The notes: generated from the letters alone by a model not told the origin. A DNA stretch of 64,000 nt from an uncultured archaeon (GCA_964347045.1 CAYFXC010000002.1:32001-96000), one strand, 5' to 3'. Positions 12,503 through 64,000 are shown, counted from the stretch's first letter. A program made the numbers and translations.

Positions 12503-13735
12503 TTATGCAAACGGCCAACGATTGAGAGCTTCATCAAGTTCTATATGTGATTTGGCATATTCTTCAAGGGATTGTCCAGCCATAGTGGCATCCACAGCCA
12601 TGCGCATCGCCATTGCACCAACTCTGGTTCCTCGGGGATGACCGTGGATGCCTCCACCCGCCTGAATAATAAAATCTACTCCGAATATATCAATGAGTGA
12701 AGGAACATGACGGGGATGTAGCCCACCAGAAGCGACGGGTAATGTGGGTTTCAAATTTGCAAGTGGTTCTTTGCATTTGCGAATATTGATTTCAACTTCT
12801 TCTCGGTCTTCAGACATCTTTCCAACTGCTGTCCCCACATGTAACTGGTCAATCCCAAGCAACCGTGAAGCTGTCACAATGACAGGCATAGCTATTCCAT
12901 GGTTGGGAAGTTTGGTGAATGCGGCATGCATAGCGCGATGTCCATGTAAAATCAAGTTAAACCCTTGTTTCCGGAGAGTTGCGACCGCCGAATAGCCACA
13001 GGTCAGAATATCGATCATGGCTACGCGACCTCCATGGTCTTCCACAAATTGAGCCCGCCGTAGCATTTCTTTTGTTTCTGCTGTAACATTAATCAAGTAA
13101 ACTTTTTTATCGCCCGTTTCGTCTTCAGCCCGATCTCGTTGATCTAAGGTGGTCACGACTCGTTCTTCGAAGGGATTAAACTTCTGACTGGCAAGATTTT
13201 CATCATCTTTGACTACATCACACCCCCCGGCCCACGCATCAAAAGCAACTTTAGCATGATCTTTGGTGCGTAATCCAAGTTTAGGTTTCACAATGGTTCC
13301 AATAAGCGGTCGTTTAACAACCTTAACTGTATCCCGGATACCTTTAATACCGTAGGCGGGCCCTGGAAAACTTTGAATCAATTTCTTTGGAAAATGAATA
13401 TCGAGCAATCGAAGGTATTGAATATCTCCCAAACCAAATACATTCCCAGCAACAGAACTCATGATATTTGGAAGGTTGCCCGGTTCAAAGAGTTCAATGG
13501 GATAGGCAACATGAGCAATATTATCGTTGAGTTTAAAGACAGACGCGGCGAGTTTTTTCATATATGGCTTCTCAGTAGTTAATTCCGTCCAAGTACCTAT
13601 TGAGCTTTCAGCCGCCACGCCCCCAGCAGCCCATTCCATGCTCTTACTGGGATCGCGCAGTTCAATTCGAAAAGTGCAAATAGTGTCACTGACCGCAGGT
13701 TTGTATTTGGGATTGTAAAAATCCTCATATTTCAT
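12503..13735 (-). CDS. rbcL: RuBisCO large subunit, form III-type
   Basis: AESSIGTW, AGNVFG, KPKLG, KDDE, HRAMH, HVGTAVGK, SGG, GGG. ATG at 13735 has a GGAGG RBS; ORF track start 13816 is probably too long. Confidence 0.93.
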   Translation of the reverse strand: MKYEDFYNPKYKPAVSDTICTFRIELRDPSKSMEWAAGGVAAESSIGTWTELTTEKPYMKKLAASVFKLNDNIAHVAYPIELFEPGNLPNIMSSVAGNVFGLGDIQYLRLLDIHFPKKLIQSFPGPAYGIKGIRDTVKVVKRPLIGTIVKPKLGLRTKDHAKVAFDAWAGGCDVVKDDENLASQKFNPFEERVVTTLDQRDRAEDETGDKKVYLINVTAETKEMLRRAQFVEDHGGRVAMIDILTCGYSAVATLRKQGFNLILHGHRAMHAAFTKLPNHGIAMPVIVTASRLLGIDQLHVGTAVGKMSEDREEVEINIRKCKEPLANLKPTLPVASGGLHPRHVPSLIDIFGVDFIIQAGGGIHGHPRGTRVGAMAMRMAVDATMAGQSLEEYAKSHIELDEALNRWPFA

Positions 13736-13820
13736 TTGACTACCTCCAAATGTTTGAAACAATGTATAAGGAATTGTAATTAGTTGACCTAAAATCATTC
13801 TCTTTGTCAAGTTCAAAAAA

Positions 13821-15261: not shown

Positions 15262-16044
15262 CTATTTCTGTCCTTTTCCAAGATAAATGCCCTGAGGATC
15301 AAGTTCACGGAGTTTTTCTAATTGCTGAATGGTCGGCTCAGCTGTAGTAGGAACATCATCAGGGATTATTAAATCGAACATAACATTTCTTTTAACCCAG
15401 TCAACTGTCACACCGGGATGAACTGATTTCAATCGAATGCGTTTTGTTTTAGGGTCAAAATCCATCTGGCACATATCAGTAACCACCATTGAGGGGCCAC
15501 CACCAATCAACCCAAGTTTCTCTCTGCTTCCCGGACCAGAGAGGTGACCCGGGCTAGTAAGGTAGTCAAGTTTTTTCACGAATTTCCGAGCATCATGTCT
15601 AAACATAAGTATTACGCGACTAGCAGAACTTGCAATATCATTTCCACCACCACTCCCTGGTAAGCGAACCTTCGGAGCTTCAAAATCTCCGATATAAGAA
15701 GTATTGATGTTTCCATATTCGTCGATTTGTGCAGCGCCCAGAAAACCCACATCTACTCGACCTCGCATCATTAGGAAGCCCAACGTTTCAATGAGTCCTA
15801 TTGATGCGGCAGCACGATAACCCAATCGTGAATCTGCGACAGATAATGCGAGGTCTTTGTTTTGAGTGTCAACATTCCCCCCTTCATAGATGATTATTGC
15901 ATTTGGAGCATGTGTCACTTTTGCAAGCATAGCACCAAGAACCGGAAGACCAGTTCCTGCAAACACTCGTTCACCATCTTGCACCGCATGAGCACCACAA
16001 ATAGCCATCAACTCCGTTGAAGTATAATCAACCATACCAACCAC
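15262..16044 (-). CDS. Family I CoA-transferase beta subunit (GctB-like)
   Basis: FAGTGLP, IYEGG (catalytic Glu), GFLGAAQID.YGNIN, RLPGSGG. Confidence 0.9.
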   Translation of the reverse strand: MVGMVDYTSTELMAICGAHAVQDGERVFAGTGLPVLGAMLAKVTHAPNAIIIYEGGNVDTQNKDLALSVADSRLGYRAAASIGLIETLGFLMMRGRVDVGFLGAAQIDEYGNINTSYIGDFEAPKVRLPGSGGGNDIASSASRVILMFRHDARKFVKKLDYLTSPGHLSGPGSREKLGLIGGGPSMVVTDMCQMDFDPKTKRIRLKSVHPGVTVDWVKRNVMFDLIIPDDVPTTAEPTIQQLEKLRELDPQGIYLGKGQK

Positions 16045-16050
16045 ATCTCA

Positions 16051-16962
16051 TTAATAGCCATATCGCGGATCCGCACGAAGCTCTTTCAATCGTTGCGATC
16101 CAATTTTTTTCAGTAACCCTTCGTGACTTTCGACACTAAGAATCCATTCACCCAAGTATTCTTGCCAACCTTCCTCCGTTTTACATTGTTGAACGTAATA
16201 CTGTAAATGAGGCAAATCGTAGTCATACATGCCGAATACCTGCATGGGCCAACTAGCAAAAGGAAGTTCTACGACATAATCCACATAAAGACTAGGAATC
16301 ATGGTTTTGTCCGAATTTTGGCGAATCTCTTCATTCGAAATGATTTTCTCGACAAAGACAATAGACTTCTTTGCACAGCGAGCAATTTCGTTATCTTCAC
16401 CTTTAATCCCAAAAATCTGGACGTTCCCTGACTGGTCCGCCTTCTGTGCGCAGATTACCCCAAAATCTGCTTGAATAGACGGTAAGAGAGTAATTGGTAT
16501 ACCTGTAAAGGGACAATCAATCACCTTGGCTTTATTTTTCCTAAGGCTGGTTTTTTCCAACATATCCGTTCCAATCATATGCCGAATCGGCATGAATGGA
16601 ACATTTAAGGCCCCACCTAAAAACCGTAATGCCATCGCAAGGTTCGAATAATCTTCGAATTTCACTTTGCCTTCTTTTGATCGTCGTCGGAGATTTGGAG
16701 CAAGACCTAAAGCCTCAATGGCAAAAAAAGCGACTTCGAATTCGAAGCACACTTCAGAACCAACGAGAATGTCTAAATCATGTTCTGAACCACAAGTGTA
16801 AATCCGGAGATCACGCTTCTTTTGTCGGATAAGTTCCATGGCAAAAGCTTCAGGGGGCCGTTGGTATCCGAAGCCACCCCAGGCGATATGGGCACCGTCA
16901 TGGACTTTTTTAGTAACTTCTTCAAGACTGATTCGTTTGTCTTCGATTGCGGCCTCAGTCAA
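16051..16962 (-). CDS. Family I CoA-transferase alpha subunit (GctA-like)
   Basis: GGFGYQRPP, GALNVPFMP, CPFTG, AQKADQSGN. Confidence 0.9.
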   Translation of the reverse strand: MTEAAIEDKRISLEEVTKKVHDGAHIAWGGFGYQRPPEAFAMELIRQKKRDLRIYTCGSEHDLDILVGSEVCFEFEVAFFAIEALGLAPNLRRRSKEGKVKFEDYSNLAMALRFLGGALNVPFMPIRHMIGTDMLEKTSLRKNKAKVIDCPFTGIPITLLPSIQADFGVICAQKADQSGNVQIFGIKGEDNEIARCAKKSIVFVEKIISNEEIRQNSDKTMIPSLYVDYVVELPFASWPMQVFGMYDYDLPHLQYYVQQCKTEEGWQEYLGEWILSVESHEGLLKKIGSQRLKELRADPRYGY

Positions 16963-17044: not shown

Positions 17045-18514
17045 CTAGCTAATTTTTGCTTGAAGAACGTCATTAACGGTAAACACTTCAAGCACGTTAG
17101 TTTTTCCTGGAACTAATGCAGAGGCTCTGACTACTACAATTCGTTCCTCGGCTTTGACAATCCCATTTTTATGAAGTTGTGTTATCGCCAGTTGGAGTAG
17201 CGCATCCAGATTTTCACGTTGTTGAAGGAGTATGCTTTCGGTACCCCAAAGTAATTTCATCTGTCGCTGAACTCTAATATTAGGTGTACATGCAATAATT
17301 CGGACAGGTGGACGATATTTTGAGACCATGCGAGCGGAATACCCACCCATGGTGAAAACTAGAACTATTTGAACATCCAGATTTTTTGCATGAGAACGAA
17401 CTGAGCGACCCAGTTCTTCTGCAATCAAGTGTTTTCCTGAATCATAGTAGGTCGATTTCCGTTGGGGAAATGAGGGAATTACTTGTCTCCCGATTGTTTC
17501 CATAACCCTAACCGCGGCAACTGGATGACGGCCAACTGCTGTTTCAGCTGAAAGCATTACTGCATCGGCACCATCTAATATTGCATTTGCGACATCACTT
17601 GTTTCCGCACGGGTGGGGCGAGGATTTCGAACCATGGATTCAAGCATCTGGGTGGCAACTATGACTGGTTTTCCTACTTTGTTACATTTGTGGATCATAT
17701 CTTTTTGAAGAAGTGGTACTTGTTCGGGAGGTATTTCCACCCCAAGATCACCGCGTGCTACCATGATTCCATAACTAGCTTCAAGGATGGCACCAAAATT
17801 TTCAATAGCCATTATATGTTCGATTTTCGAGATGATTGGAGTGTCTTTGCCTTCACTGTGCAAGAATGCTTGAACTTTTTCGACTTCATTTTTCTGTTTG
17901 ACAGCAGATATTGCTACAAATTCGGGATCTAGTTCAGCGATGAACTTTAGATGATTAATATCTTGAGGTGTGGGCACCGTCATACCTAAATCAATACCCG
18001 GAACGTTCACACCTTTTTCACTGCTAATTTCTCCACCTGTAACGACTGTGCTGTGGATCTCCGAACCCCTAATTTGGTCAACCCTGAGTTCAACTAAACC
18101 GTCATTAACAAATATACTTTGACCTGGTTGAATTAGCTTCGGAAGCGTTACTAATGATATAGAAACTCGAGCCGCATCGCCTATAACTGACTGGGTAGTC
18201 AAGGTTATTTGATCACCATCAGTTAAATCAAAGGGCGTTTCAACTTTACCAATTCGTACTCTCGGACCTTCGAGATCCATAAGAATAGGATTATTTGGGA
18301 GGTGCTTGCGAATTCGTTCGAAGCGGATTCGATGTTTTTCCAATGTTCCATGGGAGAGATTCAACCGTATGACATCCATACCTGCCTTCGCCATGTTCAT
18401 TAATTTCTCTGTGCTTTCACTGGCCGGACCAATGGTACAGACAATTTTGGAGCGGGTGGGAATCTTTCCGTGCTTCACCTTTCCACCACACCTTAAGACA
18501 TTGTTGAACACCAT
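17045..18514 (-). CDS. pyk: Pyruvate kinase
   Basis: KIVCTIGPAS, RLNLSHG, ISKIE, MVARGDLGVE, ATQMLESM, MLSAETA. True start may be a little downstream. Confidence 0.96.
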   Translation of the reverse strand: MVFNNVLRCGGKVKHGKIPTRSKIVCTIGPASESTEKLMNMAKAGMDVIRLNLSHGTLEKHRIRFERIRKHLPNNPILMDLEGPRVRIGKVETPFDLTDGDQITLTTQSVIGDAARVSISLVTLPKLIQPGQSIFVNDGLVELRVDQIRGSEIHSTVVTGGEISSEKGVNVPGIDLGMTVPTPQDINHLKFIAELDPEFVAISAVKQKNEVEKVQAFLHSEGKDTPIISKIEHIMAIENFGAILEASYGIMVARGDLGVEIPPEQVPLLQKDMIHKCNKVGKPVIVATQMLESMVRNPRPTRAETSDVANAILDGADAVMLSAETAVGRHPVAAVRVMETIGRQVIPSFPQRKSTYYDSGKHLIAEELGRSVRSHAKNLDVQIVLVFTMGGYSARMVSKYRPPVRIIACTPNIRVQRQMKLLWGTESILLQQRENLDALLQLAITQLHKNGIVKAEERIVVVRASALVPGKTNVLEVFTVNDVLQAKIS

Positions 18515-51760: not shown

Positions 51761-52279
51761 GTGCCATTCCGAGATTACATCGCAGCCCCCCATAAACTTG
51801 TATACATCGAAGGGAAGGACCGACATAAAATCCCCTGCATCTTTTGTGCCATTATCGAAGGGAATCCAAAGGTTAAAACCAAAATCGTTTACCGTGATCA
51901 AGAGTTCATGGTCCTACTCAACATGTTTCCGTTCAACCCAGGTCATGTAATGGTCGTTCCAATCCGACACGTCGTAAAGCTCTCTGAGCTAAATAAAGAG
52001 GAACAAACTGCTTTCTTTGGGATGGGCACAAAGACAGTGCACCTAGTAGAAGCTGCCTTTAATCCAACTGGTGTGAATATGGGGTTAAATATTGGATCTG
52101 CAGCCGGGGCAAGCATCAACCACCTTCATTTACATATTGTCCCCCGATACCCCCGAGAATTGGGCTTTATGGAAACAACCGCAGATACGCGAACTCTTGT
52201 TATGGATGCAGAAACCACCTATCAACGTCTCCTACCACATGTGGATATTCTCAAACAGGAGACAACAAAGAAATCCTGA
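51761..52279 (+). CDS. HIT family nucleotide hydrolase
   Basis: CIFC, LNMFPFNPGH, HLHLHIVPR. Confidence 0.93.
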   Translation: MPFRDYIAAPHKLVYIEGKDRHKIPCIFCAIIEGNPKVKTKIVYRDQEFMVLLNMFPFNPGHVMVVPIRHVVKLSELNKEEQTAFFGMGTKTVHLVEAAFNPTGVNMGLNIGSAAGASINHLHLHIVPRYPRELGFMETTADTRTLVMDAETTYQRLLPHVDILKQETTKKS

Positions 52280-52289
52280 GAGAAAAAAA

Positions 52290-52835
52290 ATGAGTAACAA
52301 ACAACAAGATTCCGTCCACCAAGGCCTAGTGCAAGTCTATACGGGTACGGGTAAAGGTAAAACCACAGCAGCTCTGGGATTAGGACTTCGTGCAGCTGGA
52401 CACGGCTTTGAGGTGTACATGATTCAGTTCATGAAAGGACAAATAAATTATGGAGAGTTGGAAGCGGTCAAACGGATTCCTAACTTCACGATTCGACAGT
52501 TTGGGCGCCCCGATTTTATCGATAAGTCCAACCCAGATCCTGAAGACATCAAATATGCCCAAGATGCTCTTGATCATGCTCGCAAGATTATCGAAGTAGG
52601 GAGTGTTGATTTTTTAATTCTCGATGAAGTAAATGTGGCAATTGACTTCGGGTTAATCACTGACAGGGAAGTTATTGCATTAATCAAATCTCGTCCGTCC
52701 CAAATGGAACTGATTTTAACAGGAAGATATGCATCTTCAGCTATTATCGAAATCGCTGATCTTGTGAGTGAAATAAAAGAAATCAAACATCCATATCAAA
52801 AAGGAATTGCCGCACGGAAGGGCGTTGAAAAATAG
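52290..52835 (+). CDS. cobO: Cob(I)yrinic acid a,c-diamide adenosyltransferase (CobO/BtuR)
   Basis: VYTGTGKGKTTAA, QFMKG, ILDE, LTGR, HPYQKG. The ORF-track extension from 52092 overlaps the HIT gene. Confidence 0.93.
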   Translation: MSNKQQDSVHQGLVQVYTGTGKGKTTAALGLGLRAAGHGFEVYMIQFMKGQINYGELEAVKRIPNFTIRQFGRPDFIDKSNPDPEDIKYAQDALDHARKIIEVGSVDFLILDEVNVAIDFGLITDREVIALIKSRPSQMELILTGRYASSAIIEIADLVSEIKEIKHPYQKGIAARKGVEK

Positions 52836-52856: not shown

Positions 52857-54530
52857 TTGCCAAAGAAACGGCGTGTTAAGAAAGCCCTTAATGATTGGAA
52901 AATCAATGTGCTCACGCCGTATATGAAAACTACACCAGAACGTGTGGATAAGTTCATGACCACCTCCAGTAAACCTGTGAAACGCCTCTACACGCCTGAT
53001 GATGTACCAGGACTTGATTATCAACATGATCTTGGTTTTCCTGGGCAGCCTCCATATGCACGTGGCGTATATCCTACAATGTATCGCGGACGCTTATGGA
53101 CTATGCGCATGTATTCAGGATTTGGCAGCGCGGAACAGACCAATGAACGCTACCGCTACCTCCTTGAACAGGGACAAACAGGGTTGAGTGTAGCCTTTGA
53201 TTTGCCCACACAAATCGGATATGATTCGGATCATCCACTGGCAGCTGGTGAAGTGGGTAAATGTGGCGTATCTATTCCATCGGTTGAGGATATGGGAATC
53301 CTCTTCCAAGATATTCCGCTCGACAAAGTAAGTACAAGTATGACCATTAACGCTCCTGCAGCAATTTTACTCGCAATGTACGTTGTGATAGCAAAACGAC
53401 AAGGTGTCAATTCTAAGGTGCTAAGGGGCACCATCCAAAATGATATTCTTAAGGAATACGTAGCCCGCGGTACCTACATCTATCCTCCAGAAGCCTCAAT
53501 GCGTTTGATTACTGACACTTTTGCATATTGTCGTGAGGAACTTCCTCGCTGGAATACCATTAGTATTAGTGGATACCATATTCGAGAAGCAGGAAGTACC
53601 GCTACTCAAGAGGTAGCCTTTACTTTTGCAAATGGTATCGCATATATAAAGGCCGCCATCGAGGCAGGGTTGCGAGTGGATGAGTTTGCTCCCCGACTCT
53701 CCTTCTTTTTTGGAGCACACAACGACCTTTTCGAAGAAGTCGCAAAATTCCGAGCAGCACGTCGCTTGTGGTATAGGATAATGCGGGATCGATTTAATGC
53801 TGAGGATTCTCGTTCGTGGCTACTCCGGTTTCACACACAAACTGCCGGATGTAGTTTGACAGCCCAACAGCCTGAAAATAATATTGTACGAGTCACTATG
53901 CAAGCTCTCGCCGCGGTGCTTGGGGGTACACAATCACTTCATACTAACTCTATGGATGAGGCGTTAGCGCTCCCAACAGAAAAAGCTGCAACCATTGCAT
54001 TGCGTACACAACAAATCCTTGCCCAAGAAAGTGGTGTGGCGAATACGATTGATCCCTTTGCAGGTTCATTCTACCTTGAAAAGTTAACCGACGATATTGA
54101 AGAGGGAGTTGTAAAGTATCTTGAACGCATTGATAAAATGGGGGGTGTTCTACGGGCGATTGAAACAGGGTATATTCAACGTGAAATTCATGATAGTGCA
54201 TATCGGTATCAGCGGGAAATCGAAACCGGTGAGCGAATTGTTGTGGGCGTAAACCAATTCGTTATCCCTGAAGAACAACAAACTATCGATTATCTTCGGG
54301 TTGATCCAGCTGTAGAGAAAAGCCAACAAAAAAAGCTTGCATCCTTTCGAAGAAATCGGGATGGAAAAGCAGTGGAAATAGCCCTCAACATGCTTCAGAT
54401 AACAGCAGAAAGAAAAGAAAATCTTCTATACCCAATCCTTGCTGCAGTTGAGGCGCAAGCAACGCTTGGTGAAATTTGTGATGCACTTCGATTAGTCTTT
54501 GGTGAATATAAGGCACCACAAATCTTCTAG
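52857..54530 (+). CDS. Methylmalonyl-CoA mutase large (substrate-binding) subunit
   Basis: [52 protein letters not shown]. No B12-binding domain. Confidence 0.95.
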
Positions 54531-56297: not shown

Positions 56298-57134
56298 ATG
56301 GCTAAACCGCCAATCCCATTAGAGCCCCGAAAAGACTCCTTTCAACATGCATTCAAAAACATGGCAAATTTAGTCTTTAAACGATTGCTCCATTTTCCAT
56401 CACTTCCATCAACCAACACATACTTGAAAGGATTAGCCAAGAGGGGCGAACCTGAAGGATTAATTGTGCTGGCAGACACACAGACCAAAGGAATTGGACG
56501 ATTGGAGCGAAGTTGGTATTCGCCCCCAGGAGGACTTTATTTCTCGTTGCTTGTCCGCCCTATGACTATTACTGCAAACAATACTCCACTCATAACTCTA
56601 ACAACAGGTATAGCAATCGCAAAAGTACTTCAAAGTGCCTTAGGCTTACATCCTTCTTTGAAATGGCCCAATGATGTGCTATTAGATAGGCGAAAAGTAG
56701 CAGGGATTCTGGTTGAATCAGCGTTCATAGACAACGCTATTGAATATTCAGTAATTGGCATCGGAATCAATGTCAACACAACTCGTATGGATTTTCCTGA
56801 ATCCATACAAAACACTCTAACGACGCTTCAAGATAAGCTCAAACGAGTGGTGAATTTACCACGATTATTTGGATATTTTGTTGGTCAACTTGAATTTTGG
56901 TATCTGAAGCTCCTTGACAAAGGTTTCAAGGCTATCGAGCCACACTATCGAGGGTTATGTATGACTCTGGGTAAACGCGTCATCATTGATTTGGGTGATG
57001 TTAAATTAACCGGTCAAGCGAAGGGGTTAGAACCAGATGGCAGTTTAATTATCCAGACACCAGAGGGAATGAAAATAATTCGCAGTGGTGACATGATTTC
57101 CTCAAAACCTAATAACACCGTTGAACAATCTTAA
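56298..57134 (+). CDS. birA: Biotin-protein ligase (no HTH)
   Basis: STN, QTKGIGR..RSW, KWPND, KVAGIL, GIGINVN. Confidence 0.94.
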   Translation: MAKPPIPLEPRKDSFQHAFKNMANLVFKRLLHFPSLPSTNTYLKGLAKRGEPEGLIVLADTQTKGIGRLERSWYSPPGGLYFSLLVRPMTITANNTPLITLTTGIAIAKVLQSALGLHPSLKWPNDVLLDRRKVAGILVESAFIDNAIEYSVIGIGINVNTTRMDFPESIQNTLTTLQDKLKRVVNLPRLFGYFVGQLEFWYLKLLDKGFKAIEPHYRGLCMTLGKRVIIDLGDVKLTGQAKGLEPDGSLIIQTPEGMKIIRSGDMISSKPNNTVEQS

Positions 57135-59793: not shown

Positions 59794-61353
59794 ATGCCTT
59801 CAGAAATAATGAATCGAAAGATGAAGGAACTCCACAAACGCCTAAAAAAAGCCCAACTCGGTGGCGGTAAGGAGCGTATCGATAAACAGCATAAAGCTGG
59901 AAAAATGACAGCACGCGAAAGGATTGACAGGTTGCTGGACACGGGAAGTTTCATGGAATTCGATGCTCTCGTGGAACATCGGTGCACCGAATTCAAGATG
60001 GACAAACAAAAGATCCCCGGTGATGGCGTTGTAACCGGCTATGGAACCATTGATGGGCGCTTAGTATTTGTGTTTAGCCAAGATTTTACGGTGTTTGGCG
60101 GCGCGTTAGGAGAAATGTTTGGTGAAAAAGTCACCAAAATTATGGATCTAGCCCTAGAAGCAGGAGCCCCCGTAATTGGTTTGAATGACTCGGGTGGGGC
60201 ACGTATCCAAGAAGGTGTTGCGAGTCTCGGCGCCTATGGAGAAATCTTCTATCGCAATGTAATTGCTTCTGGTGTGATTCCACAAATTAGTGCAATTATG
60301 GGTCCTTGTGCCGGTGGCGCTGTTTATAGTCCCGCCGTTACCGATTTTACTCTCATGGTCAAAAACACGAGCCGAATGTTTATCACTGGACCAAACGTCA
60401 TCAAGGCAGTAACGGGAGAAGTTATTTCCTTTGAAGAACTTGGCGGCGCAATGGCTCATAACATTAAAAGTGGCGTTGCCCAATTCGCAGCAGAAAATGA
60501 AGAGCATTGTCTTCAACTTATTCGAGACCTATTATCGTATCTTCCATCGAACAATGTTGAGGACCCTCCACTTCTAGAAGCTACTGATGATCCACAACGA
60601 ACAGACCCCCGGTTGAACGAACTCCTCCCAGATGACACCACAACTCCTTACGATATGAAACAAGCCATTCTGAGTGTAGCAGACAATCATCAGTTCCTTG
60701 AAGTTCACGAACACTTTGCCCAGAATATAGTGGTGGGATTCATTCGATTGAATGGACATCCTGTGGGCGTCGTTGCCAACCAACCAAACTACCTAGCAGG
60801 AACACTAGATATTGATGCCTCTGATAAGTGTGCACGGTTTGTCAGGTTCTGCGATGCATTCAATATACCAGTGTTGACTTTCATGGACGTACCAGGATTT
60901 CTTCCTGGCGTTGATCAAGAACATCGAGGCATAATTCGACATGGAGCCAAGATTCTTTTTGCATATGCCGAAGCGACTGTTCCTAAAGTCACCGTGATTA
61001 CACGAAAAGCCATTGGGGGAGCCTATGTAGTATTGGGATCGAAACACTTGCGTGCCGATGTAGTCTATGCTTGGCCTACCACTGAAATGGCCGTAATGGG
61101 ACCTGAAGGAGCCGCAAATATCATTTTCCGACGAGAAATCGAAAAATCAAAGGATCCAGATGCAACACGGGCAAAACGGATAGCCGAATACCGAGAACGT
61201 TTCGCGAATCCATATTCAGGAGCAGTTCGCGGATTCATTGACGAGGTTATTGAACCTGCAGTCACTCGATCACGAATAATTGCTGCCTTCGAAATGTTAC
61301 GAACCAAACGTCAAGCCCTACCAAAGAAAAAGCATGGCAACTGTCCCCTCTAA
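59794..61353 (+). CDS. Acyl-CoA carboxyltransferase (PccB/MmdA/transcarboxylase 12S-like)
   Basis: [42 protein letters not shown]. Confidence 0.95.
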
Positions 61354-61456
61354 TCTAATAATAAATAGGACGATTGGCTGGACAGACAGAAAACTAAAAA
61401 CTAAGAGAGATTATTACCACCTATCTTCCTCTGACATATTGCGAGGTGTAACCATC

Positions 61457-62968
61457 GTGGTGCCCTTGGCCTTGAAACCAATAAAATTCACTGACACAAC
61501 TTTTCGTGATGCCCACCAATCCCTTCTAGCAACCCGAATGCGAACTGAAGATATGTTACCCATCGCCGAAAAGATGGATCAAGTGGGCTTTAATTCCATG
61601 GAAATATGGGGCGGAGCCACCTTTGATGCACCTCTCCGATTTCTTAAGGAGAATCCGTGGGAACGCCTCCGACAACTTCGAGCGGCCATCAAGAAAACAA
61701 AACTTCAGATGCTTCTACGCGGACAAAATATCGTTGGATACCGTCATTATCCCGACGATACCGTTCGCAAATTTGTTGAACTGGCAGCTAAGAACGGAAT
61801 TGATATTTTCCGTGTTTTCGACGCGTTGAATGATCCCCGGAATATGAAAACAGCATTAAAAGCTATACACAAAGCCGGCGCACATGCACAGCTAAGTTTC
61901 AGTTATACCATTAGCCCGGTTCATAATGTTGAGGCATTTGTACACCAGGCCAAGAATTTAGAGGCGATGGGCGCTGATTCAATATGTATTAAGGATATGG
62001 CGGGGCTTCTGAATCCCTTCATCGCCAGCGAACTTGTTACACGTCTCAAAGAAGAGATATCTGTCCCGATTCAGTTACACTCACATTATACTTCAGGAAT
62101 GGCAAGCATGGCTTACCTTGAAGCTATCAAAGCAGGCGTGGATATTATAGATACAGCAATTTCATCTCTTGCGCAATCTACATCACAACCGCCCCTAGAA
62201 ACCATGGTAGCTATACTCGAAGGAACACCTTGGGATCCAAAACTCGACCTTGAACTATTGTCTGAGATTGCCACCTATATTCTCAATGTCCGTGAACGAT
62301 ATGAAACCTATGAGTGTGGCATGGTTGGAGTGGATACAAACGTTTTGCAATTCCAAGTTCCCGGAGGGATGATGTCCAACCTCGTAAACCAACTTCGCGA
62401 GCAAAACGCATTAGACAAAATGCAAGCAGTTCTTGATGAAGTACCCAGAGTAAGGAAAGAATTAGGATATCCGCCCTTGGTAACTCCTTCTAGTCAAATC
62501 GTTGGAACGCAAGCCACACTCAATGTACTCCTAGGTGAACGTTACAAAACCATCCCAGAGGAAGTGAAGCAATACGTTCGTGGATACTATGGTCGACCAC
62601 CGGCACCTATTGATCCAAAGATTCAGAAGCTAGTAATTGGAGATGAAAAACCGATTACCGGTCGCCCTGCAGATCTGTTGGAACCTGCCATCCCCAAAGC
62701 ACGACGTGAACTCAAAGGCATCACTTCTGAAATAGAAGATATTATCGCCTATATCTTGTTTCCACAACCTGCCCTCGAATTCTTTGAATATCGGAAAGAA
62801 CAGAAAGCCCTTAGTAAGCTCACTCCAGACATTCTCGCGGCAATTACGGCAGCTTTACTTGAAACTCAGCCTACTCCACCTGAGATGCCTACAATTCGAC
62901 GACCTAAAACGAATGGATCAAATCCGTGGGTTCTTGCGGGTCGTCGAGAAGCAATGGGATATGAATAA
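61457..62968 (+). CDS. Pyruvate/oxaloacetate carboxyltransferase (OadA/transcarboxylase 5S-like) with fused epsilon/delta-like tail and no biotinyl domain
   Basis: RDAHQSLLATRM, GGATFD, LLRGQN, IKDMAG, HSH, PPLVTPSSQIVG. GAGGTG RBS precedes GTG 61457. Confidence 0.92.
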   Translation: MVPLALKPIKFTDTTFRDAHQSLLATRMRTEDMLPIAEKMDQVGFNSMEIWGGATFDAPLRFLKENPWERLRQLRAAIKKTKLQMLLRGQNIVGYRHYPDDTVRKFVELAAKNGIDIFRVFDALNDPRNMKTALKAIHKAGAHAQLSFSYTISPVHNVEAFVHQAKNLEAMGADSICIKDMAGLLNPFIASELVTRLKEEISVPIQLHSHYTSGMASMAYLEAIKAGVDIIDTAISSLAQSTSQPPLETMVAILEGTPWDPKLDLELLSEIATYILNVRERYETYECGMVGVDTNVLQFQVPGGMMSNLVNQLREQNALDKMQAVLDEVPRVRKELGYPPLVTPSSQIVGTQATLNVLLGERYKTIPEEVKQYVRGYYGRPPAPIDPKIQKLVIGDEKPITGRPADLLEPAIPKARRELKGITSEIEDIIAYILFPQPALEFFEYRKEQKALSKLTPDILAAITAALLETQPTPPEMPTIRRPKTNGSNPWVLAGRREAMGYE

Positions 62969-62991
62969 CAAGATGTTATGGAGGGTATAGA

Positions 62992-63573
62992 GTGCTTCGT
63001 AAATACAAGCTCACAATCAACAATACGACTATCAACGTCGACGTGGAAAGTCCCAAGGAGGGCAGTCTCATGATTACCATTGGGGAAGCTACATTTTCAG
63101 TGAACCTTACAGATTGTGATCACAGCTCTGGTATCTACAAAGTGAATGTAGGTAATTCCCAATACACAATCATTCTTAAACCCAATCCTGAGACAGCGGA
63201 TTACATGCTTAAGGTTCATAAAGATACATATACTGCAGACATCACGCCGCTCACAGGTACTACAGCTCGGAGTTATCAACCCTCAATCATAGCAGCTCCT
63301 CCAGAATCTAACAACGCATCTTTACCTCAAACTAGTCTTATTGCTCAAGAAATCACTGAGCCAGGTACAGTCACTGCTCCATTGCCTGGTCGTGTTCTTG
63401 AAGTGCGCGTAAAGGAAGGCGATGAAATTAAACGCGGTGATGTACTTCTCGTTTTAGAAGCAATGAAGATGGCAAATGAAATTCGTGCGCCACAAAGTGG
63501 AACAATTAGTACTGTTCATATTCAAGCTGGAGCAACGGTGGAAAAGGGACAGCCTATGATTAGCATCAAATAG
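62992..63573 (+). CDS. Biotin carboxyl carrier protein
   Basis: TAPLPG, LEAMKMANEI. Confidence 0.95.
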   Translation: MLRKYKLTINNTTINVDVESPKEGSLMITIGEATFSVNLTDCDHSSGIYKVNVGNSQYTIILKPNPETADYMLKVHKDTYTADITPLTGTTARSYQPSIIAAPPESNNASLPQTSLIAQEITEPGTVTAPLPGRVLEVRVKEGDEIKRGDVLLVLEAMKMANEIRAPQSGTISTVHIQAGATVEKGQPMISIK

Positions 63574-63806: not shown

Positions 63807-64000
63807 CTGTAGATTAGGATCAGACTTCTTTTCTTTTCTGTACACTTCATATCGAAGTGATAGCCCATTTGGGTAAAGCAACTTTGTTGCTTAGCAAAAC
63901 CGTTAAAACAAAAGCACCCTAACAGAACAAGAAAAAAGGAGACATTCTACTCCTCAATTTGATATCATGGGATGGCGACGCCTAATGGTTACAAAAGAGA

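Follow-up and report, generated by a model that had tools for sequence, protein, structure and literature searches.

Do three co-oriented genes at positions 59794–63573 of a stretch of archaeal DNA encode an enzyme that moves carboxyl groups between methylmalonyl-CoA/propionyl-CoA and pyruvate/oxaloacetate without ATP? The stretch (GCA_964347045.1, CAYFXC010000002.1:32001-96000), hereafter the window, comprises 64,000 nucleotides of a contig (C2:32001-96000) from a genome of 2.58 Mb in 83 contigs, with a completeness of 88.9% and a contamination of 3.8%. An earlier note on this DNA had proposed for the three genes a methylmalonyl-CoA:pyruvate transcarboxylase, with the 12S-5S-1.3S composition of Propionibacterium, in a probable Asgard archaeon. 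The host assignment is borne out by matches of the 5S protein, the keto-acid carboxyltransferase of the set: the nearest named relative is the metagenome-assembled genome (MAG) 'H03M_Hermod_104' of the Hermodarchaeota, with 89% identity across that protein, and the further top matches are labelled Promethearchaeota, Thorarchaeota or Hodarchaeota, such that the source organism looks, by sequence, like a Hermodarchaeota-type Asgard archaeon. As to the enzyme, we consider ATP-independent carboxyl transfer between these acyl-CoA and keto-acid pairs the probable function.

This core reading is not new, having been published already for Asgard archaea (PMC7015854, PMC8163825). Imachi et al. 2020 used precisely this gene set to score 'propionate' metabolism in Asgard genomes (PMC7015854), and Zhang et al. 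2021 reported a methylmalonyl-CoA mutase and a 'methylmalonyl-CoA carboxyltransferase' in every Hermodarchaeota genome, assigning them to alkylsuccinate processing (PMC8163825). The statement that no archaeal transcarboxylase has been characterised holds within the literature searched, in which we found no paper on the purification or assay of such an enzyme. What is new here is a helix-less BT barrel on the carrier, a conserved helix in the 5S tail with a predicted plug, and a gap at malate dehydrogenase. The locus is a further member of an annotated Asgard system and not a new kind of enzyme.

The three genes and the search for a partner

The set consists of the following genes:

59794..61353, + strand: 12S-like acyl-CoA carboxyltransferase (PCC-beta / MmdA family), 519 aa; PF01039 Carboxyl_trans
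61457..62968, + strand: 5S-like pyruvate/oxaloacetate carboxyltransferase without a biotinyl domain, 503 aa; HMGL-like PF00682 and PYC_OADA PF02436
62992..63573, + strand: stand-alone biotin carrier, 193 aa; N-terminal barrel, linker, biotinyl domain

All three genes are present as first described, with strong family matches. The 12S-like protein matches PF01039 at 673 bits (E 3e-202) in the profile search and, among solved structures, finds its best match in PDB 1vrg, a propionyl-CoA carboxylase (PCC) beta subunit (726 bits), with PDB 1on3, the 12S subunit of Propionibacterium shermanii, at 592 bits. The longest open reading frame (ORF) of the 5S-like protein opens at TTG 61280, with the profile match starting only at residue 66; since the close homologues are all of 503 aa, the likely start is GTG 61457, with ATG 61334 as an alternative and the stop at 62968. 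This protein matches the PycB model NF006761 (769 bits) over profile positions 2–450 of 591 only and therefore has no biotinyl domain of its own, as had been recognised from the sequence. Its solved relatives are PDB 5ks8 (PycB, 541 bits), 2nx9 (OadA, 510 bits) and 1rqb (Propionibacterium 5S, 463 bits). The metal-site residues D18, K179, H208 and H210 are invariant in our 5S alignment (A1), and from the alignment offset and the literature we take them to be equivalent to Asp17, Lys178, His207 and His209 of OadA. The biotinyl domain of the carrier matches PF00364 (Biotin_lipoyl) at 73.6 bits and bears an EAMKM motif, with the biotinyl-lysine Lys159 at 63466–63468. We place the start of the carrier at GTG 62992 because conservation across families extends to its first 26 residues; the public gene call, of 167 aa, omits these residues (62992–63069), which form the first strands of the barrel described below. 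By tblastn, the genome holds a single 12S, a single 5S and a single biotinyl protein, and the set looks like the sole biotin enzyme of this archaeon. Since neither catalytic subunit reaches the cut-offs of the equivalog models and the best matches of both lie elsewhere, composition and context must be the guide to function.

The composition is marked by the partners it is missing. An ATP-grasp biotin carboxylase (BC) and the OadB/MmdB membrane subunit had been reported missing from the window, and neither is found there; a conserved partner BC, or the beta subunit of a Na+ pump, at another place in the genome had been named as a finding that would refute the proposal. The profiles PF02785, PF00289 and PF03977, all positive in control genomes, give 0 matches in the 2.58-Mb genome, and Asgard probes for BC and OadB likewise give 0 tblastn hits. 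Two weak PF02786 matches, considered as a hidden BC, are the beta subunit of succinyl-CoA synthetase and a generic RimK/CPS-like ATP-grasp protein. The search was extended to 151 Asgard genomes sorted into families, among which PYC_OADA is confined to four, namely f1 (16/18), the Thorarchaeota-type f6 (25/26), f12 (3/3) and f17 (1/1). Biotin_carb_C was found in none of the 47 genomes of f1 (0/18), f6 (0/26) and f12 (0/3), and OAD_beta (PF03977) was likewise found in none of them; in both cases the closed single-contig genomes G012 and G023, both of f12, are included. Biotin_carb_C is present in 39 Asgard genomes of other families. The sole exception among the 5S-bearers is G025 (f17, 9% contamination), which has both BC and OadB. 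The sampled genomes are kin, so that the family counts are not independent, and the pattern spans three divergent families. As neither BC nor OadB/MmdB was found in the genome itself or in the 47 relatives, the ATP-independent reading is supported.

A check of synteny across Asgard genomes, suggested in the earlier note, bears this organisation out: the 12S-5S-carrier cluster recurs in the divergent families f1, f6 (including the named Thorarchaeota contig L047) and f12, with the biotin-protein ligase BirA and a mutase nearby and, in f1 and f12, an epimerase. BirA adjoins the cluster in all four 5S-bearing families (f1, f6, f12, f17), and no membrane gene is conserved beside it in the syntenic loci compared. 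In f6 and f12, other genes separate 12S from 5S; considered as extra subunits, they are either unrelated (P-type ATPase, GNAT) or of no family. In the closed f12 genomes, a small ORF without a family match stands directly upstream of 5S (L022:11308-11601, − strand, 97 aa; L023:8847-9101, + strand, 84 aa); it is possibly an extra small subunit.

The carrier barrel and the 5S tail

The architecture of the two smaller gene products is built from these elements:

62992..63255, + strand: carrier N-terminal eight-stranded beta-barrel, residues 1-88; BT-domain-like without the central helix
63256..63573, + strand: carrier linker (residues 89-120) and biotinyl domain (residues 121-193); PF00364 and structure model
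62798..62869, + strand: 5S tail stretch (residues 448-471) with the Ala-rich helix PDILAAITAALLETQ, which the predicted complex places inside the carrier barrel
62927..62944, + strand: 5S terminal motif W491..A494.R496 (PWvLAGR); conserved, candidate 12S-docking element

In the full model of the carrier, the biotinyl domain has a predicted local confidence (pLDDT) of 93–96 and a structural match to 2d5d_A (Z 14.7), and the linker is disordered, at below 50. The N-terminal domain, modelled alone, reaches a pLDDT of 88, and its top 32 Foldseek matches are all alpha subunits of PCC, methylcrotonyl-CoA carboxylase (MCC) or acetyl-CoA carboxylase (ACC): the match to human PCC (7ybu_A) has an E of 4.4e-4, a template-modelling (TM) score of 0.77 and a root-mean-square deviation (rmsd) of 2.7 over 86 columns, and the rmsd falls to 1.9 for the PCC of M. 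extorquens and for yeast ACC. The aligner VIA, which is independent of Foldseek, places first the yeast ACC BT-BCCP fragment 5csa_B, with an rmsd of 2.3 over 80 aligned residues and a Z of 7.9, a middling value on its own, with generic barrels at 5.3 or below; 5csa_B and 3u9s_A align over both domains of the carrier. Because the two aligners agree and the domain occupies the same position just before the BCCP, its assignment as a BT-type antiparallel barrel is solid at the level of the modelled fold. By sequence it scores 16.2 bits against the BT family PF21385, below the cut-off of 27. A word-index search with this domain found only the gene itself, and a profile search recovered about 50 true family clusters and many long repetitive proteins that we regard as spurious, with no proteins of the length of PCC alpha. 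The canonical BT barrel encloses a helix; the models show none in residues 1–88 of the carrier.

A candidate for the missing helix is found at the C-terminus of the 5S-like protein, which carries a tail in which an Ala-rich helix is joined by a variable linker to a W..(A/S)GR motif. This tail is missing from PycB, OadA and the short 5S forms compared. In alignment A1, the tail residues A461, A462, W491, A494 and R496 do not vary between Asgard archaea and Chloroflexi, and the terminal motif is invariant over the Asgard, Chloroflexi and Methanofastidiosia sequences. The tail and the barrel also travel together: among 92 loci, the long BT-type carrier is accompanied by an unfused 5S of at least 501 aa in 18/18 cases, and the combination of tail and long carrier occurs in none of 71 others (0/39 fused and 0/32 short forms).

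The predicted complex of full-length 5S with the carrier N-terminal domain reaches a median score of 0.81, a mark attained by 58/80 solved complexes and by 2/110 mismatched pairs, although BT domains have been solved in cis and the pass may partly reflect that likeness; the best of three controls scores 0.02. The model runs have at least 80% of their contacts in common, with a partner pLDDT of at least 82. In the predicted interface, 5S residues 448–471 touch alternate residues on each of the eight strands, those that point inward, and the helix is therefore placed inside the barrel. The model thus supports a 5S tail helix that would plug the carrier barrel and tie the carrier to 5S. Such a contact has precedent in carboxylases without a BT helix, which require a helical epsilon subunit (PMC3199775), and in a mycobacterial hybrid carboxylase in which the AccE5 helix enters the barrel and leads, through a linker, to a C-terminal element bound to the carboxyltransferase (CT) hexamer (PMC13612425). 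The 5S tail gives no match at E <= 10 to the Pfam families ACC_epsilon and OAD_gamma, which leaves only an architectural analogy to AccE5; by that analogy, the W..AGR end may dock on 12S. Taken together, the BT barrel, the co-varying 5S tail and the predicted tether appear to make up a structural variant of the classical enzyme.

Outside the Asgard archaea, we sorted 80 named loci by architecture. Transcarboxylase-like (TC-like) clusters occur in Anaerolineaceae, Acidobacteria, a Peptococcaceae mmc-like locus, Archaeoglobaceae and Bacillota; PycA-PycB pairs in Pseudomonas, Nitrospira and Methanosarcina; OadB-linked sets in Clostridia and one Anaerolineae chromosome; and a TC-like layout with a BC gene in Bathyarchaeia and one Chloroflexia locus. 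Several of these loci are hybrids (L064, on the Anaerolineae chromosome OY776562.1, L048, L051 and L071): one Anaerolineae cluster runs 12S-5S-carrier-OadB, the Chloroflexia locus runs 12S-BC-carrier-5S, and the order in Bathyarchaeia is BC-carrier-epimerase-BirA-12S-5S-long carrier-mutase. The 5S/BT-carrier module seems, then, to have been combined with different partners in different lineages. A quick maximum-likelihood tree built from 92 sequences of 5S, a phylogeny that the earlier note had called for, does recover three Asgard clades with a support of 100 each, near the TC-like group of Chloroflexi and Acidobacteria, with the Chloroflexi sequences as the nearest non-Asgard relatives; as a functional assignment it fails, since support is poor at its deep nodes and TC-like, BC-linked and OadB-linked layouts are intermingled across it.

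Neighbouring genes and the proposed reaction

The genes around the cluster that bear on its substrates are these:

52092..52835, + strand: CobO/BtuR-type ATP:corrinoid adenosyltransferase, PF02572, 216 bits; loads the B12 cofactor of the mutases
52857..54530, + strand: upstream acyl-CoA mutase large subunit, with Tyr in RMYSGFG and Arg in ILKEYVARG; PDB 1req, 502 bits
55886..56281, + strand: methylmalonyl-CoA epimerase, TIGR03081, 152.5 bits, above the cut-off of 114.95; match at C2:87886-88269
56298..57134, + strand: BirA-type biotin-protein ligase without the helix-turn-helix domain; PF03099 and PF02237
63672..63806, + strand: Cys-rich mini-ORF, about 44 aa with five cysteines, MACPMFDA...CPICMMSS
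63967..64000, leaving the window, + strand: start of a second mutase large subunit (L001:5967-7661, C2:95967-97658), with RMFSGFG and ILKEYQAQK

Between BirA and 12S lie rubrerythrin and desulfoferrodoxin genes on the opposite strand, and the order beyond the carrier is the mini-ORF, the second mutase, a B12-binding small subunit, MeaB, a gene of 295 aa, EtfB and a ferredoxin-EtfA fusion. A continuation of the operon into OadB or BC past the window edge was thus considered and rejected. The two mutase large subunits are 64% identical, the upstream copy having Tyr/Arg and the copy next to the carrier Phe/Gln at the two diagnostic positions; the former pair is the signature of methylmalonyl-CoA mutase and the latter that of the isobutyryl-CoA mutase type. 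There is a single B12-binding small subunit and a single MeaB, both after the downstream mutase, and hence this one small subunit may serve both mutases. The epimerase, the Tyr/Arg mutase, CobO and BirA all lie within 8 kb of the cluster, and their proximity strengthens its link to methylmalonyl-CoA.

In family f1 the mini-ORF is conserved at 10 loci, each time between carrier and mutase, and it is a member of the operon in f1 only; a profile search gave it no Pfam match. It had been listed as an ORF of 77 aa and considered as a gamma/delta-type anchor subunit, an idea we rejected, as there is no Pfam or NCBIfam match and only the last ~44 residues are conserved, in f1 only; the longer frame is over-extended, since relatives show stop codons upstream of the Met of the mini-ORF. 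Elsewhere in the window are a RuBisCO large-subunit-like gene, a family I CoA-transferase A/B pair and a pyruvate kinase (12503-13816, 15262-16962 and 17045-18514, all on the − strand); the CoA-transferase pair could serve in the activation of succinate or propionate.

The reaction that these genes suggest is of the EC 2.1.3.1 type, (S)-methylmalonyl-CoA + pyruvate <-> propionyl-CoA + oxaloacetate. The neighbouring BirA would biotinylate the single carrier, which would be shared by the two enzymes, loading a carboxyl group at one carboxyltransferase and delivering it at the other, with the acyl-CoA half-reaction at the 12S-like subunit and the keto-acid half-reaction at the 5S-like one. The Ala-rich helix of the 5S tail would fill the BT barrel and so tether the carrier to 5S while, conceivably, the end of the tail holds 12S. 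The epimerase, the Tyr/Arg mutase with CobO, and succinyl-CoA synthetase would join this reaction to succinyl-CoA and succinate, and the ADP-forming acyl-CoA synthetase (ACD) would convert propionyl-CoA to propionate with the formation of ATP. The reaction is presumably reversible, and we slightly favour the propionyl-CoA-forming direction in vivo.

The rest of the genome fits one side of this scheme well. It encodes succinyl-CoA synthetase alpha and beta, a malic-enzyme-like protein, ACD and the family I CoA-transferase pair, as well as a TfrAB-type soluble fumarate reductase (thiol:fumarate reductase-like, with an HdrB-type CCG domain; L039:7568-12362, G000:C1:93568-98362) adjoined by a two-subunit class I fumarase; a second enzyme, of SdhAB type, is on contig C4. 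An AcetylCoA_hydrolase-type CoA transferase was not found in this genome. Towards succinyl-CoA and propionyl-CoA, then, the enzyme has good connections.

Weighing the readings against known systems

Several observations weigh against a transcarboxylase joining methylmalonyl-CoA to oxaloacetate. The 12S-like protein scores 877.3 bits against TIGR01117, the MmdA/12S family, short of its cut-off of 998.8, and the 5S-like protein scores 551.5 bits against NF008984, the NCBIfam equivalog for transcarboxylase 5S, whose cut-off is 827; the best solved relatives are PCC-beta for the former and PycB/OadA for the latter, and not the Propionibacterium subunits. The genome being about 89% complete, its lack of BC and OadB rests largely on the relatives. 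The module of 5S tail and BT carrier stands beside a BC in Bathyarchaeia and one Chloroflexia locus and is therefore not in itself transcarboxylase-specific. The mutase directly downstream of the carrier is of the Phe/Gln isobutyryl type and not of the methylmalonyl type. To these may be added the cis likeness behind the score of the modelled complex and, on the oxaloacetate side, the following gap.

A malate dehydrogenase of the lactate/malate dehydrogenase (LDH/MDH) type was found in none of the 5S-bearing families (f1 0/18, f6 0/26, f12 0/3, f17 0/1), with the same enzyme present in 27 of the sampled Asgard genomes, all of other families, and an Ldh_2-type dehydrogenase was not found in the genome studied here. 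GTP-dependent phosphoenolpyruvate carboxykinase (GTP-PEPCK) and archaeal phosphoenolpyruvate (PEP) carboxylase were not found in family f1, in which the only candidate is a distant PEPCK_ATP-like ORF of 643 aa, doubtful as a real PEPCK at 50.8 bits against a cut-off of 369. The complete Wood-Werkman cycle that had been associated with this gene set is therefore not supported as a closed cycle, because an LDH/MDH-type malate dehydrogenase was found in no family with 5S, and its textbook form is doubtful in the Asgard 5S-bearers. Oxaloacetate might instead arise from, or be drawn into, aspartate or malic-enzyme-type decarboxylation. What survives of the earlier proposal is the ATP-independent shuttle itself, which both the absent partners and the methylmalonyl-CoA gene context support.

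Among the alternatives, the one that fares best keeps the chemistry and changes the substrate: a transcarboxylase or decarboxylating carboxyltransferase acting on another acyl-CoA, either (2-methylalkyl)malonyl-CoA derived from alkylsuccinates or a short-chain carboxy-acyl-CoA tied to the isobutyryl-type mutase. The Phe/Gln signature of the adjacent mutase would suit it, as would the placing of the Hermodarchaeota mutase and carboxyltransferase in alkylsuccinate processing by Zhang et al. 2021 (PMC8163825) and the presence in this genome of a PFL-like glycyl-radical enzyme (G000:C27:522-2507, − strand, 706 bits). However, that gene has one in-frame TGA, which could be a sequencing error, a pseudogene mark or a recoded codon, and the enzyme is patchy (9/19 family genomes), whereas the cluster is near-universal there and extends to f6 and f12; moreover, the epimerase and the Tyr/Arg mutase share the locus. 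On balance we regard a different acyl-CoA substrate as unlikely.

A second alternative would make the system a carboxylase or an ion pump, through a partner that went unrecognised, be it a divergent ATP-dependent carboxylase or a membrane subunit unrelated to OadB. It draws on the incompleteness of the genome, on a 411-aa generic ATP-grasp protein on contig C12, and on the related 5S/carrier modules that have BC in Bathyarchaeia and OadB in one Anaerolineae locus. Yet the ATP-grasp protein has neither Biotin_carb_N nor Biotin_carb_C and is unlinked to the cluster, the BC and OadB profiles prove sensitive in control genomes, two closed relatives are free of both, and no membrane gene is conserved beside the cluster, all of which makes such a partner very unlikely. 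Barely credible is the view that these are remnant or separately acting genes, for example a soluble uncoupled methylmalonyl-CoA or oxaloacetate decarboxylase: searches for a consumer of oxaloacetate (malate dehydrogenase, PEP carboxylase, GTP-PEPCK) came up empty and a net decarboxylation with malic enzyme is conceivable, but the three ORFs are intact and syntenic, with conserved catalytic and biotinylation residues and evident purifying selection, and the known biotin decarboxylases need a beta subunit to decarboxylate carboxybiotin.

The ATP-independent transcarboxylase thus remains the reading of choice, and a more specific form of it may be ventured. The Asgard enzymes, together with the similar module in Bathyarchaeia, Chloroflexi and Acidobacteria, could represent a distinct structural class of transcarboxylase in which the BT domain is split, with the barrel on the carrier and an epsilon-like helix-linker-W..AGR element on 5S; in lineages without BC, malate dehydrogenase, PEP carboxylase and GTP-PEPCK, it might be the sole link between acyl-CoA and oxaloacetate, serving anaplerosis or the fermentation of aspartate and glutamate. 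We put this forward tentatively, giving it a little less than an even chance. The predicted tether offers a concrete assembly model for a type of transcarboxylase that is not known to have been purified, and it relates the build of this enzyme to that of epsilon-containing acyl-CoA carboxylases. The wider interest lies in the proposal, built on exactly these genes, that propionate/succinate metabolism is among the ancestral traits of Asgard archaea, which of all prokaryotes stand nearest to eukaryotes: the genes' genome-wide partner-free composition, closed genomes included, makes the published annotation firmer, and the missing malate dehydrogenase means that the pathway drawn around the enzyme needs revision.

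Seen against characterised systems, the closest parallel in composition is the EC 2.1.3.1 enzyme of Propionibacterium freudenreichii subsp. shermanii. It has the same three parts, namely a crotonase-fold 12S, a TIM-barrel 5S without a biotinyl domain and a separate carrier, and like the Asgard set it comes without BC or membrane subunit, from genes linked to a mutase and an epimerase. The likeness inferred at the outset thus stands for the parts list and not for the parts: the Asgard subunits are not close orthologues, 12S lying nearer to PCC-beta (726 against 592 bits) and 5S nearer to PycB/OadA (541 for PycB against 463 bits). The P. shermanii 1.3S subunit has about 123 aa and links 12S to 5S through a short peptide at its N-terminus, whereas the Asgard carrier has 193 aa with an 88-residue BT-like barrel and is not of the 1.3S type; the Asgard 5S bears, unlike that enzyme, the conserved helix and W..AGR tail. 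The Peptococcaceae mmc-like (L063), Anaerolineaceae (L049) and Archaeoglobaceae (L121) loci also unite 12S, 5S, carrier, mutase and epimerase without BC or OadB; the Peptococcaceae, Archaeoglobaceae and Bacillota forms differ from the Asgard ones in their short 5S (452–488 aa) and short carriers without a BT barrel.

The sodium-pump and pyruvate carboxylase systems (OadABG/MmdABCDE and PycAB) have homologous catalytic domains (2nx9 510, 5ks8 541 and mmdA profile 877 bits), but their defining subunits were not found in the Asgard relatives (OadB/MmdB 0/47, BC 0/47), in which the biotinyl domain is unfused. With PCC (alpha, BC-BT-BCCP; beta, CT; PDB 7ybu, 6ybp, 3n6r), the Asgard set shares a 12S most like the beta subunit and a carrier that corresponds by fold to the BT-barrel-plus-BCCP part of the alpha subunit, without its BC domain; the Asgard barrel has no central helix of its own, and 5S is the predicted donor. 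Finally, the layout of helix, linker and C-terminal element in the 5S tail is that of AccE5 (PMC13612425), except that in the Asgard set it forms part of a keto-acid carboxyltransferase and its predicted partner is a single-chain barrel of eight strands, with the binding of 12S through the terminal motif suggested by analogy.

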